IMG/VR virus record: IMGVR_UViG_3300037010_000760
Span: 4,422-68,421 of that record
Source of the DNA: a virus
Reading direction: 5' to 3' (one strand)
DNA length: 64,000 nucleotides
A model generated the notes under the pieces. It did no database searches and had not been told where the DNA came from. It was given only the letters and a program-made list of their open reading frames with translations. This document shows positions 47,280 through 54,240 of the stretch, one piece after another (positions within the stretch are counted from its first letter, which is position 1; every line of letters starts with the position of its first letter). A program made the translations under genes and the position numbers.

Positions 47280-47759
47280 ATGAATATGCGTACAGTATTT
47301 AATTCTTGTGGGAGTCAAGACTCATTAGTAGATAAGCGTATAGGCAATGCCTTTGATACGGTACAACAAGTTGCCCTAAATCTTGGAATGCTGCAATACA
47401 TTGTCGATAACATGGAGGCAATCTATTCTGCTGCTACGCATGAACCTATTTTGAGTCCTGTTCCTATTATCTCATTTATCTCAGCAAGTTATGTAGCAGC
47501 AGATCACTTAGATGATCGGTATAGACATGTTAGATTGAATAATACAATTAGTGTGTCTGTGTTAGATATATATGGACTTATTGAGATAGGCTCATGGTAT
47601 CAATTTAAAAATACCAAAACAACTGCTATTTCCCTCATTGGAGGAACTTTTAACTTACCTTTGGGTACTAAATCAAGTCTTCGTGCTAAAGGTGAGATGC
47701 GTATCCTTAAAGTCTCTGCTACAGAGTGGGATGTTGTAGGTGATATGGAGGCAATATAA
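47280..47759 (+). CDS. short tail-appendage anchor protein (gp66-like N-terminus)
   Basis: 'LVDKRIGNAFDTVQQVALNL' resembles the virion-attachment N-terminus of N4-like appendage proteins; only about 160 aa. Confidence 0.6.
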   Translation: MNMRTVFNSCGSQDSLVDKRIGNAFDTVQQVALNLGMLQYIVDNMEAIYSAATHEPILSPVPIISFISASYVAADHLDDRYRHVRLNNTISVSVLDIYGLIEIGSWYQFKNTKTTAISLIGGTFNLPLGTKSSLRAKGEMRILKVSATEWDVVGDMEAI

Positions 47760-48895
47760 TGAGATTTGCTATGACGTGTAATCAATTAAATCTATTACTG
47801 GATAGTAGTAGAGTTATTGTTCCCGTATATGTATTAACATCATCACTCAGTACCATAAACGAGGGGGAATCTGTGCTATTTAGCTTGGAATCCCAAAATG
47901 CTGAGGTAGGTACAGTAGTTCCATTCACCTTATCTGGAATGACCTCCGGTATTGATTACACTCCTGTAGCAAATTACTCTTTTATTGTTGGTTCAAGAGA
48001 TTCAATTACCGTAACCACATTAAGTGATTTAACTACGGATGGTGCTAAAACATTAGTTATGTCTCTAACTGGCAAAGGTGTATCTAAGTCAGTCTCGGTG
48101 CTAGATACTAGCATAGCACCTCCGCCCCCATCACCAATTTATACCCTAGATTCCTCTGCTAATTCTATAGATGAGGGGGCTAATTTGGTGTTCACTCTTG
48201 GTGGCACTAATTTGGTTAATGGAGATGTAGTTCCATTTACTATAACTGGTATGGCCAGTGGCGTAGACTATACTACACTAGCTTACACTTCTTTTATTGT
48301 AGGCACTAGAAATACCATATCAGTAGCTGTATTATTAGATGCCACTACTGATGGGCAGAAAACCTTTACTATGGCTCTCACTGGAAAAGGTGTTTCTAAA
48401 TCTGTAACTGTTAATGATACGTCTTTAACTGCTACACCTCCACCCTCTCCTGCTCCTGCTCCTGCTCCTGCTCCTGCTCCGAGTGGGCCAAGTGTAATAA
48501 CAACAGGTACTAATATACCTATTATTGAGGGTAATCGTGCATACGGTAACTTTGTAGTTACTCCGGCTCTAGCAGCACAAGTCACTGTAGGAGTAACTGT
48601 TGGGCCATCTAATTCACCGCCACAAGTATCAGCAAATGATTGGAAATTGCCTCTCTACTGCATATACACTATTAATGGTGTTGACCAGCCTGAGATAGTA
48701 ATACCTACTACAGGTAATGCTGGTAGTTTAGACATACCAGCAGGTACTACCAACATAAAATTAAGTGTGGATACGCTCACAGATAATATTGTTGAGGCAG
48801 CAGAGGGTCTGCTATACGTAATAAGTCAAACCCAATCTAACTACTTAAGTAACTCATGGTACGTCACATCTGAAGTTACTGTACTGGATCAATAA
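47759..48895 (+). CDS. three-domain Calx-beta/Ig-like protein with Pro-rich linkers
   Basis: Two ~97-aa near-duplicate domains ('INEG..DY..DLTTDGAKT..LTGKGVSKSV.V.DTS'), PPPP and (PA)n linkers, third domain 'IIEG...DNIVEAAE...VTVLD'. Confidence 0.75.
   Translation: MRFAMTCNQLNLLLDSSRVIVPVYVLTSSLSTINEGESVLFSLESQNAEVGTVVPFTLSGMTSGIDYTPVANYSFIVGSRDSITVTTLSDLTTDGAKTLVMSLTGKGVSKSVSVLDTSIAPPPPSPIYTLDSSANSIDEGANLVFTLGGTNLVNGDVVPFTITGMASGVDYTTLAYTSFIVGTRNTISVAVLLDATTDGQKTFTMALTGKGVSKSVTVNDTSLTATPPPSPAPAPAPAPAPSGPSVITTGTNIPIIEGNRAYGNFVVTPALAAQVTVGVTVGPSNSPPQVSANDWKLPLYCIYTINGVDQPEIVIPTTGNAGSLDIPAGTTNIKLSVDTLTDNIVEAAEGLLYVISQTQSNYLSNSWYVTSEVTVLDQ
48449..48480 (+). repeat. (CCTGCT)x5.3 in-frame repeat encoding a Pro-Ala linker
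   Basis: Read directly from the sequence. Confidence 0.9.
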
Positions 48896-48896
48896 T

Positions 48897-51689: not shown

Positions 51690-51699
51690 GGCATATACC

Positions 51700-54240
51700 A
51701 TGGCACGAAATGCAAGACTTACTGTTACCTTGAGTGCAGCAAGCACGTCTGTAGTTACTGTTAACTATGCCACTGTGGATGGCACAGCAGTATCTCCATC
51801 TGATTATACCCATGTTAGTGGTACTTTAACTTTTGCTCCGGGGCAGGTTACCAAGTATATTGATGTAGCTATTCGAGATGATCTTCTTGGTTCAGCATCT
51901 GAACAATTCTCGGTGGTGCTCTCTTCCCCAACTGGAGCAACTATCCTTGATAACACAGGCGATGTTGTTCTTGGTTCTGGTGTTGGGGAAATACCCGAGT
52001 ATTACAGAAGATTTAATTGGGTATACGATAAAGTTCACAATACATCTATTGGCTACTTTGGCCCACAAACGGGGCCAAATGCTTTCTCTGTACCTAGACA
52101 TATACCCGAAGTAGACAGTCGAATCATTAATGAGGCACCTGACTATGGTGGAGAGACTGTATCCGAAACTGCATCTTTCTGGGTTGGCCTAGAGGCATGG
52201 AAAGGTTTAGTATCTGGTGACTGGTCAGGCTATAACACATGTGCCAATAATATAGAAAAATTCTATATACCTAATAATGCTAATCAGCCTGTTGGTGCAT
52301 ATACAGCAAGCAGACCTGCTGATTATGTTCCAGAAGGTAACTTAGTTAGCGATTACCCTAGACTAGCTAACTTAGCTGCCCCTATTGGTGCAGACCCGTT
52401 GTATGACGAGCTTCTATCCACTTATAGTACGAAAAACATCTATTTAATGCATTGGATTATCGATGTTGAAGGTGCTTATGGGTTTAAGAATGCTGAATTA
52501 GGTGCTTCCCAACTCTCATTTATGAATACATACCAACGTGGTATGCAGGAATCAAGTTATGAGACTATTCCACAAGGAGCTTGGAATAATTGGCAGAATG
52601 GTGGTCGAGCTGGCTCTGGCGGCTATGACCCATTATTTAATCAAGGTCTTCCAGATTATCCTGCTGCACCGTATGCCTATTCAAAAAAATGGTCATATAC
52701 TAATGCACCAGATGCAGAGATGCGAGCTATTCAGTGGGCATTTCATGCTAAGAAATTTGCTACAGAACAAAACAAACTATCTTCTATTTCCTCCTCCCAA
52801 GAAAAGTATATAAAGATGGGAGACTATGCCCGATATAATTTGTTTGATAAGTATTTCCGCAAAATTGGTGATAATCAAGTTGCAGGTTCTGGTTACAACT
52901 CGTGTCATTATTTGATTAACTGGTACGCTTCTTGGGGTGGTGAAATACCTACAAGTGGTTTAGGAAGTTGGTCATATCGAATTGGCTGTGGAGAGTCTCA
53001 TCAAGGCTACCAGGCACTGATTTCTGCATATGCAATGGCTACTGGAGGTGGTGGTATGACTCCTATGTCTCCCAGTGCCGGGGACATATGGTTGGGTTCG
53101 GTATATCGACAAATTGAAATGATTCGTTGGCTTCAATCACCAGAAGGCCCAATAGCTAGTGGAGTCACAAATTCTTATGCTGGAGATTATAGAATTCCTG
53201 ATGGAAATAGAAATGTTTCCAAATTCTATGGAATGTCCTATGTCTACTCTCCAGTTTGGCACGACCCACCATCAAATAACTGGGTTGGCTTCCAATACTG
53301 GGGACAAGGTAGAACTGCTGATCTATTCTTGGAGGTGAGTGATAAAACTACTCCACTAGCTACAGCCATAAGACCAAATCTTGAGATAATTCTTGATAGA
53401 CTAGTTTCTTGGGCAATTAGAGAAACTAGCATACTCACTGCTAGTGATGTGAAAGTATCTTTTAAAGTGCCTGCTACTATATCGTGGATAGTTGATAACA
53501 CGAAAGCAGAGTGGGCTGCTGAAATAGCTGCTGGTCAAGGTATCCCAACAACAAACAATTTTGAAGGAAGCAAAGAATGGTTACCTACTCTTAACTGGGA
53601 TGGTAAAGGTGACTATGCTGCTTTCTGGAATGCAAGTACAGTTCCAAATCCACATTTACACTGCCAAATGGCCCCTGAAAATGAGGGCGGACATGGACAA
53701 GATGTAGGGGTGGCTGCAAGTATGGCCTATCTACTGATAGCCTATGCGAAAGCTAAAAAGAACATGGGTAAGTTCAATACTACTGTATCTATTGTTGTTG
53801 GTTCAACTACTTATGAACATACAGCAGAAAGAGCGTTTCTATTAGCTAAGGATTTGCTTGATATTATATGGAATCATTTTAGATCACCATCTATAGGAAC
53901 AGATATTGAATCTAGTTATGGTATTGGTTTATCTGAACCACGTAGTGATTACGCTAGAATGACTGACACTGTTTATGTGCCTACAACTCCTGTGGCATAC
54001 ACTGGGGCTATGCCAAATGGTGATGTTATAAATTCATCATCCACATTCATATCCATAAGATCATTTTTGAAAGATGATAAAAAATGGGCAGAGTGCCTTG
54101 CATATGCCAATGCAATGAAGGCTAACCCTAATCAGACTGCCGTACCTCCACCAAATATGCTGTATCATCGCTTTTGGGCGCAAGTCGAATTTGCTATGTC
54201 GTGTGCGGCTCTGCAATATAATTTTTCAGAACTACTTTAA
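51700..54240 (+). CDS. Calx-beta + GH48 processive cellulase
   Basis: GH48 motifs 'EAPDYGGETVSE', 'MHWIIDVE', 'NTYQRGMQES', 'YTNAPDAE', 'KMGDYARYNLFDKYF', 'WLQSPEGPIASGVTNS', 'HDPPSNNW', 'YHRFWAQ'. Confidence 0.93.
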   Translation: MARNARLTVTLSAASTSVVTVNYATVDGTAVSPSDYTHVSGTLTFAPGQVTKYIDVAIRDDLLGSASEQFSVVLSSPTGATILDNTGDVVLGSGVGEIPEYYRRFNWVYDKVHNTSIGYFGPQTGPNAFSVPRHIPEVDSRIINEAPDYGGETVSETASFWVGLEAWKGLVSGDWSGYNTCANNIEKFYIPNNANQPVGAYTASRPADYVPEGNLVSDYPRLANLAAPIGADPLYDELLSTYSTKNIYLMHWIIDVEGAYGFKNAELGASQLSFMNTYQRGMQESSYETIPQGAWNNWQNGGRAGSGGYDPLFNQGLPDYPAAPYAYSKKWSYTNAPDAEMRAIQWAFHAKKFATEQNKLSSISSSQEKYIKMGDYARYNLFDKYFRKIGDNQVAGSGYNSCHYLINWYASWGGEIPTSGLGSWSYRIGCGESHQGYQALISAYAMATGGGGMTPMSPSAGDIWLGSVYRQIEMIRWLQSPEGPIASGVTNSYAGDYRIPDGNRNVSKFYGMSYVYSPVWHDPPSNNWVGFQYWGQGRTADLFLEVSDKTTPLATAIRPNLEIILDRLVSWAIRETSILTASDVKVSFKVPATISWIVDNTKAEWAAEIAAGQGIPTTNNFEGSKEWLPTLNWDGKGDYAAFWNASTVPNPHLHCQMAPENEGGHGQDVGVAASMAYLLIAYAKAKKNMGKFNTTVSIVVGSTTYEHTAERAFLLAKDLLDIIWNHFRSPSIGTDIESSYGIGLSEPRSDYARMTDTVYVPTTPVAYTGAMPNGDVINSSSTFISIRSFLKDDKKWAECLAYANAMKANPNQTAVPPPNMLYHRFWAQVEFAMSCAALQYNFSELL

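Follow-up and report, generated by a model that had tools for sequence, protein, structure and literature searches.

A putative cellulose-targeting tail cassette of the S6 type, with an added GH18 module, in an environmental N4-like phage genome

The S6-type cassette and its counterpart in an environmental phage

The closest described system is that of the Erwinia phage S6 (vB_EamP-S6, Schitoviridae, Waedenswilvirus). According to a 2022 commentary (PMC9544554), host cellulose is the first receptor that S6 requires, its protein gp095 is a GH5 enzyme that degrades carboxymethylcellulose, and gp094 associates a Calx-beta domain with a GH48 domain; a 2026 paper citing the primary work (PMC13220884) states that cellulase activity was reported for the S6 virions and names Gp94-96 as cellulase genes. 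For other Schitoviridae, namely G7C and Possum, the proposed design is that of an adaptor plus an enzymatic fibre (PMC9569702). We analysed here a window of 64,000 nucleotides (nt), positions 4,422 to 68,421 of the IMG/VR record IMGVR_UViG_3300037010_000760, in which four consecutive genes, P0001 to P0004 (47268-54240, + strand), encode a short anchor, a tandem beta-sandwich protein, a GH5 + GH18 protein and a Calx-beta + GH48 protein. Judging from sequence comparisons, they appear to form a lineage-specific version of the S6-type cassette, which is known, published and widespread. We estimate at roughly 0.7 the probability that they specify a virion-borne, cellulose-degrading adsorption apparatus of the S6 type, with an extra activity directed against N-acetylglucosamine (GlcNAc).

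The four genes were originally predicted to be tightly coupled and to follow a gp67-like adaptor in the slot of phage appendages, and this is what the open reading frames (ORFs) and the PHROG matches around them bear out. The gaps never exceed 10 nt: P0001 and P0002 overlap by 1 nt (TAATG), 1 nt separates P0002 from P0003 (TAAtATG), and 10 nt separate P0003 from P0004. The gp67-like virion structural protein gene (46564-47277, +; phrog_2125, E 5e-71) lies directly upstream, its product being 50% identical to phiEaP8 gp04 and 39% to S6 gp097. The slot comes after terL, the gp67-like gene and the appendage-anchor gene, and before the lysis genes and portal. The order in S6 and phiEaP8 is terL, virion structural protein, gp096 or “appendage”, GH5 “hydrolase”, GH48 “glycoside hydrolase”, a small ORF, holin, endolysin, spanin and portal; S6, phiEaP8, Kuerle, Pastis and the Fifi phages have the same slot and gene order as the genome studied here.

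The resemblance extends to the proteins, with pairwise identities of 34-57% between the cassette and its S6 and phiEaP8 counterparts. As in the S6 type, the first protein has an anchor-type N-terminus; the Ig-like + GH5 protein bears an N-terminal “SSR” and conserved catalytic glutamates (this part of P0003 is 37-39% identical to gp095 and gp06); and a Calx-beta domain devoid of its first strand precedes GH48, at 57% identity. Unlike gp095, P0003 ends with a GH18 domain and lacks the first ~220 amino acids (aa), which in gp095 form two Ig-like domains. The anchor is also shorter (163 aa versus 317-362 aa in the S6 type), and a separate tandem beta-sandwich protein of 378 aa and two ORFs of 140 and 554 aa are present in this phage, which is of environmental source.

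The S6-type pair is by no means rare. A tblastn search with P0004 against 50,697 deposited phage records matched 30 of them. In 17 of these 30, corresponding to 13 phage names, all with Erwinia hosts, the Calx-beta + GH48 protein is full-length (49-56% identity): the carriers are S6, Pastis, phiEaP8, Kuerle and six Fifi phages, together with the ~148-kb myoviruses Hena1, pEp_SNUABM_01 and pEa_SNUABM_55/56. Each of these full-length carriers has a GH5 gene just upstream, and in Hena1 the pair is located inside the baseplate cluster. With a GH48 profile, IMG/VR yielded 13 loci, all with GH5 upstream on the same strand, and six with the N4-like order terL-gp67-anchor...GH5-GH48...portal. Finally, among the best 120 protein-database clusters, 107 contain GH48 and 97 Calx-beta in addition; 24 are on contigs of 60-77 kb. 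The statement that no phage with an endo/exo cellulase pair had been described is therefore contradicted by S6 itself, whose adjacent gp095 (GH5) and gp094 (Calx-beta + GH48), in the same slot, were in print in 2022 (PMC9544554). That S6 “encodes a cellulase” holds for the GH5 gp095, but understates a phage that carries the whole GH5 and Calx-beta-GH48 pair. As for novelty, for which the presence of the cassette in related phages had been named beforehand as the decisive point, the core is found in the 13 named Erwinia phages and in 13 of 13 IMG/VR loci.

Around this core, the catalytic domains are arranged in various ways. In P0073 (1326 aa) GH5 is fused directly to GH48 without any Calx-beta, and an Ig-like domain follows; in P0100 and P0196 SGNH/GDSL-type domains are joined to the GH48 or the GH5 protein. 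The phage protein P0136 carries a full chitinase-type GH18 on the N-terminal side of GH5, plus ~400 unassigned C-terminal residues. GH5 and GH18 are combined in 7 of the 120 listed clusters, which include bacterial CBM2-Calx-GH5-GH18 proteins. Accessory activities thus appear to be swapped on a common chassis.

The enzymatic proteins P0003 and P0004

P0004 (51700-54240, +; 846 aa) consists of a Calx-beta domain without its first strand (51712-51936) followed by GH48 (52000-54237). Its Pfam matches are above the cut-offs, as are those of P0003 described below, in agreement with the domains first assigned to both proteins. GH48 is matched over its full length (E 7.5e-176, 586.7 bits) and resembles the solved GH48 cellobiohydrolases (PDB 6d5d, E 1.8e-124). 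P0004 is 57% identical to S6 gp094 over the full length and 49% to phiEaP8 gp07. The catalytic motifs had been described as intact, and they are: E156 of P0004 aligns with E155 of S6 and D338 is invariant in 45 sequences, the corresponding residues of P0003 being given below. The “Asp331” published for S6 falls on an Asn in the deposited S6 record, which may reflect a difference of numbering.

The Calx-beta domain of P0004 (residues 5-79, E 3e-16, 59.8 bits versus a cut-off of 27) matches only positions 24-99 of the 119 of the Pfam profile. With a home-made Calx-beta profile, positions 19-107 were matched in seven of the seven GH48 proteins tested; as the match begins after strand one in each case, the first strand seems to be absent from the Calx-beta of GH48 proteins. 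Likewise, Calx-beta begins at the second strand in all the GH48 ORFs of the 13 loci. The same truncated module heads other proteins of tail clusters, e.g. the 968-aa “tail protein” of Serratia phage Parlo. This suggests that the truncated Calx-beta might be a docking module.

In a few N4-like relatives (loci L016, L017 and L019) a free Calx-beta protein of 114-116 aa is encoded between the GH5 and GH48 genes; it also lacks the first strand, and the GH48 protein there has its own copy. We considered that the missing strand of the GH48 protein could be supplied by the GH5 protein, through an LPTLSISD-like motif that resembles the strand with which complete bacterial Calx-beta domains begin, and that recurs in S6 gp095 and phiEaP8 gp06. 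As a general rule this split domain was rejected, since only 2 of the 13 upstream GH5 ORFs carry the motif at that place; in two of the others a similar string is found where the GH5 barrel begins, and nine lack any. The motif does not match the home-made profile significantly (independent E values of 0.05-6), and this profile is contaminated by GH5 starts. The bacterial protein P0229, in which the motif directly precedes GH5 and no Calx-beta follows, also counts against the idea. A complex prediction with residues 1-100 of P0004 and 1-80 of P0003 scored 0.04, which is no answer and is evidence neither way.

P0003 (48897-51689, +; 930 aa) successively displays an SSRVI peptide (48957-48971), a duplicated LPTLSISD-like motif (49014-49103), an Ig-like domain (~49119-49466), GH5 (49542-50525) and GH18 (~50661-51686). 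The database gene call for it, P0005, is 778 aa long and starts 152 codons later, excluding 48897-49352. The 930-aa form appears the better call, because the long N-terminus is conserved in its relatives P0006 and P0127. The GH5 domain (residues 216-543, E 7e-45, 154 bits) has its catalytic glutamates at E363 (NEP) and E482 (GEFG), aligned with E570 and E689 of S6 gp095, and the closest solved structures are the endocellulases E1 (E 5e-58) and CelE2 (E 2.5e-66).

The GH18 domain (residues 589-850, E 6e-15, 56.1 bits versus a cut-off of 29.6) contains the motifs SIGG, DGIDIDYE (of the DxxDxDxE type) and MSYD; solved chitinases match its first half only, with an E of 1.3e-7. In deposited phages, no match was found beyond residue 605 of P0003, and the GH18 part used alone retrieved six records of Vibrio jumbo phages only, at 27-30% identity. 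In a set of 5.8 billion proteins, the GH18 region gave three matches: the protein of the window itself, P0006 and P0007. The domain is absent in all 13 related IMG/VR loci, and neither the GH18 profile nor single-protein scans found a match in IMG/VR. A scan of genome contigs pointed to three loci in metagenome-assembled genomes (of Opitutia, Alphaproteobacteria and Bacteroides), whose contexts are uninformative on the substrate, and a metagenome scan returned distant GH5 genes only. Literature searches on GH48 or GH18 in phage tails gave the S6 commentary and unrelated papers; no description of a GH5-GH18 phage tail protein was found there.

Compared with the S6-type cassette, the C-terminal GH18 thus appears to be new. 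P0006 is 79% identical to P0003 across all three modules, GH18 included, while P0127, 73% identical, stops exactly at residue 576, which is the end of GH5; because of this difference between two close relatives, GH18 appears to be a C-terminal module gained or lost recently. The GH18 of P0136 is of a different, full-length chitinase type and is placed N-terminal to GH5, so that this other GH18-GH5 fusion probably arose independently of P0003.

Catalysis by GH18 enzymes uses the 2-acetamido group of the substrate, and a sugar bearing it is required at the cleavage site. GH18 can therefore not cut plain cellulose, and its presence speaks for another target besides it, either a separate polymer or one of mixed composition. 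Cutting of peptidoglycan at entry is a task for which GH18 need not be invoked, since it could be covered by the SLT lytic transglycosylase domain (Pfam E 6e-9) found in a virion-type protein of 728 aa (932-3118).

A different use of these enzymes would be metabolic, the genes helping a polymer-degrading host to break down cellulose or chitin. GH5 and GH48 are indeed the classic cellulolytic pair and the sequencing runs containing this DNA have labels of metagenomes from microbial mat and sediment. Besides, bacterial CBM2-Calx-beta-GH5(-GH18) proteins exist, e.g. in Reyranella and Roseococcus; together with P0136 they have the same GH5 subfamily (37-50% identity), but the bacterial proteins differ from P0003 by another order of the domains and by the presence of CBM2. 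In the cassette, on the contrary, no CBM was matched, and a crude hydropathy scan revealed no long hydrophobic stretch at the N-termini, in line with the original remark that clear signal peptides are missing; the genes are also embedded in the structural module. Moreover, the cultured carriers infect Erwinia, where cellulose is a product of the host and the receptor of the phage (PMC9544554). We thus hold an auxiliary metabolic role to be very unlikely.

The anchor, the beta-sandwich protein and a shared N-terminal peptide

P0001 (47268-47759, +; 163 aa) was originally viewed as a short appendage anchor, a view strengthened by its similarities. These are restricted to residues ~5-58, which match the N-termini of N4-like tailspikes, exopolysaccharide depolymerases and appendages from phages that infect Erwinia, Salmonella, Achromobacter and Escherichia, including S6 gp096 and phiEaP8 gp05; the PHROG family “appendage” is matched with an E of 0.0015. 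S6 gp096 and phiEaP8 gp05 share a conserved start, which in P0001 is probably the MRTVF at 47286. For the C-terminal ~100 aa no family match was found. A lead from the Atlas is to small viral proteins, among them a T4_gp9_10_N-like cluster (0.93, 177 features); the Pfam search gave no match to a T4 gp10-like attachment domain. The AlphaFold model from the single sequence has a confidence score (pLDDT) of 33 and is unusable.

A comparison can be made with G7C (gp66 and gp63.1) and Possum (gp67 and gp66), for which a small or N-terminal adaptor is proposed to mount receptor-modifying enzymes on the N4-like tail (PMC9569702); the N-terminus of P0001 is of this shared N4-like type. The enzymes mounted in these two phages are SGNH deacetylases acting on O-antigen, unlike the GH5, GH18 and GH48 of the present cassette.

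P0002 (47759-48895, +; 378 aa) comprises an SSRVI peptide (47804-47818), two domains (~47816-48112 and ~48128-48424), a Pro/Ala linker (48431-48487) and an uncertain C-terminal domain (48488-48892). The description of it as three Calx-beta/Ig domains with proline-rich linkers was right for two beta-sandwiches, modelled confidently by AlphaFold (residues ~20-225, pLDDT 88-97), and for a Pro/Ala linker; on the other hand the only Pfam match to Calx-beta is below threshold (24.5 bits versus 27) and residues 228-378 are modelled with low confidence. The best PDB match of the model, by Foldseek, is the tandem of Calx-beta domains of NCX1 (CBD12, E 6e-8), generic Ig tandems scoring nearly the same. 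The ~100-aa repeat is present in 1315 representative proteins, many of which are giant repeat proteins. An ortholog, P0244 (372 aa), is 73% identical overall, its first 20 residues being the same. As a free-standing protein, P0002 also seems to be new compared with the S6-type cassette.

P0002 and P0003 share their N-terminal peptide, and this sharing seems to be a further novelty of the lineage. In the 26,402 aa of all 135 ORFs of the window of at least 60 aa, SSR[VI][IV] has just two occurrences, one in P0002 (residues 16-20) and one in P0003 (residues 21-25). SSR[VIKL] is found within the first 50 aa of 36 of 119 GH5 homologs, among them S6 gp095 and phiEaP8 gp06; the GH5 proteins of Hena-type myoviruses have different N-termini. 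Catalytic parts in common, with N-termini that vary according to the kind of phage, are the usual mark of tail proteins, and on this ground the SSRVI peptide may be read as a docking tag. As P0002 possesses it in common with the GH5 enzyme, P0002 would be a co-passenger rather than a scaffold.

This bears on the idea of a cellulosome-like complex, in which P0001 would anchor a Calx-beta scaffold, P0002, itself holding GH5/GH18 and GH48 on the virion. Several features are in keeping with it: the four genes are translationally coupled, P0001 has the N-terminus of a genuine appendage anchor, P0002 contains several beta-sandwich domains and a Pro/Ala linker, and modules of the Calx-beta type occur in both P0002 and P0004. 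Bacterial cellulosomes also unite a GH5 endoglucanase and a GH48 exoglucanase in one assembly or locus. However, cohesin, dockerin and CBM3, which they possess, have no Pfam match at E<=0.01 in the four proteins, and the target proposed here is a cellulose receptor made by the host, not plant biomass. The enzyme pair occurs in S6, phiEaP8 and 13 of 13 related loci with no homolog of P0002, so that the enzymes do not seem to need it, and the shared SSRVI fits a parallel passenger better than a platform. The terms “cellulosome-like” and “scaffold” are thus unsupported, as no cohesin, dockerin or CBM of any kind was matched, and such a complex looks unlikely; P0002 is more likely a glycan-binding or spacer passenger.

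A more elaborate arrangement can be imagined, in which P0001 is a minimal adaptor offering sockets to proteins tagged by ~25 residues containing SSRVI, and GH48 docks through a Calx-beta domain completed by a strand of a partner. GH5, GH48 and GH18 would then digest a matrix or sheath of mixed beta-1,4 glucose/GlcNAc made by a mat-dwelling host, the tag and the strand-deficient Calx-beta being portable docking devices through which phages of three morphotypes could exchange glycanases. A literature search for a sheath polymer mixing glucose and glucosamine gave nothing, and as a whole we regard such a plug-in appendage as rather doubtful.

The position and the N-termini of the enzymes are also relevant to the possibility that they are not virion parts but soluble proteins, freed at lysis and dissolving the biofilm matrix for the escape of the progeny. 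P0003 and P0004 lack the conserved appendage N-terminus, the pair of S6 and phiEaP8 is upstream of the holin and endolysin genes, and free phage depolymerases are known. Nevertheless the genes stand in the appendage slot, behind the gp67-like and anchor genes, or within the baseplate cluster in Hena1; the variation of the N-termini with the morphotype, for common catalytic parts, is that of tail proteins; and a cellulase activity of the S6 virions has been reported (PMC13220884). A release at lysis therefore seems improbable.

Genomic context and proposed function

Since the record is a metagenomic contig, the cassette could in principle be a chimera of assembly, bacterial genes for carbohydrate-active enzymes having been joined to a phage contig. 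We examined Logan contigs from four runs, X1, X2 and X3, which are possible source runs of the record, and X4, from a separate study. One contig of X3 covers 44356-58276. In X4, which is independent, pieces of a ~99%-identical strain lie over terL and P0002, as well as across the GH5/GH18 junction (49368-51457) and the one between P0003 and P0004; its differences amount to 239, and 30 of the 40 listed are synonymous. The contigs of X1 and X2 break, but at 48432-48488 only, which coincides with the repetitive Pro/Ala linker of P0002, and these gaps are no sign of a true break. The GC content at third codon positions is 0.25-0.29 for the four cassette genes, which places them at the bottom of the core-gene range (0.27-0.40) or slightly under it, and the gene order equals that of cultured phages. 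The claim that the region is no chimera, first made from its codon style, is thus consolidated by bridging contigs, composition and gene order, and a chimera can hardly be envisaged.

In run X1, a Logan record of low depth (3.1x versus ~15-21x) connects the flanks of 47498 and 59076 through 9 different letters. The whole cassette and the lysis genes would be missing from such a sequence, and loose ends occur at 47481 and 59093. No shared repeat of at least 9 nt was found at 47498 and 59076 to explain it, and it may be a mosaic relative or an artefact of assembly.

The genome is of the N4-like (Schitoviridae) type: PHROG matches include RNAP2, primase, DNA polymerase, a Dda-like helicase and rIIA/B, as well as terL (44975-46567), portal (59395-61596), a gp57-like protein and the major head protein. 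A putative virion RNA polymerase, so called for its size and position only, corresponds to an ORF of 3937 aa. The completeness of the 68,421-bp record is estimated at 93% by CheckV. Since its portal shares no more than 66% identity with those of deposited N4-like phages of Pseudomonas and Erwinia, the lineage appears to be undescribed.

Two more ORFs, of 140 and 554 aa, occupy the interval between the cassette and the lysis genes (54250-56339, +), with Ig-like/FCCH-type matches only. Their GC content is 0.46-0.47 versus ~0.40, their codon profile is less typical, and no counterpart was found in S6 and phiEaP8, nor any homolog in the 13 related loci. They are possible members of the apparatus, and the true receptor-binding protein could be the one of 554 aa. 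Signs of a diversity-generating retroelement were not found, as no reverse transcriptase (RVT_1) is matched across the 68-kb record and no direct repeat of at least 30 nt occurs within 54000-58500.

From all these elements, we consider plausible that the phage displays on its virion a set of glycanases against a cellulose-containing matrix, and we propose the following functioning. All the cassette proteins would be carried on the tail appendages, a mounting that we infer from the homology with S6 and from the analogy with the adaptor-mounted fibres proposed for other Schitoviridae (PMC9569702). P0001 would attach through the N-terminus common to N4-like tailspikes, P0002 and P0003 would dock by their short SSRVI peptide, and P0004 by its N-terminal Calx-beta, the module that also heads other tail proteins. 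At the contact of a host embedded in bacterial cellulose, the endoglucanase, of the GH5_1 type, would nick the chains and GH48 would process them from their ends; this digestion would open the way to the outer membrane, in the manner proposed for S6. The most likely contribution of GH18 would be an activity on some polymer of this matrix that contains GlcNAc.

Several points weigh against this interpretation. Regarding the virion, P0003 and P0004 do not have the appendage N-terminus that P0001 carries, and SSRVI is a motif of five residues noticed post hoc. Neither P0002 nor the C-terminal part of P0001 has a detectable counterpart in S6, phiEaP8 or the 13 related loci, and the roles given to them are guesses. 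The family is not confined to free phage genomes either, since large bacterial contigs (Novosphingobium, Rhodoblastus) encode some of the Calx-GH48 homologs. The GH18 subfamily appears rare, and some of its relatives weakly match an EndoS-type barrel. Lastly, the production of cellulose by the host is assumed.

What is new in this locus, i.e. the GH18 add-on, the free beta-sandwich protein, the minimal anchor and the environmental N4-like lineage, leaves the picture set by S6 unchanged. It shows nonetheless how far the cellulose-targeting tail cassette of the fire-blight phages would extend: it appears widespread in uncultured phages, with at least 97 Calx-beta + GH48 clusters, many of them on phage-sized contigs. 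The cassette also appears modular: N4-like podoviruses, Parlo-like podoviruses and Hena-like myoviruses have its catalytic parts in common but not the N-termini, and the shared N-terminal peptide offers a cheap, testable idea of how the enzymes are mounted. The GH18 domain points to a second, GlcNAc-containing target in the matrix of the host, where other lineages add SGNH-type domains. The enzymes of such cassettes are candidate degraders of biofilm matrices.

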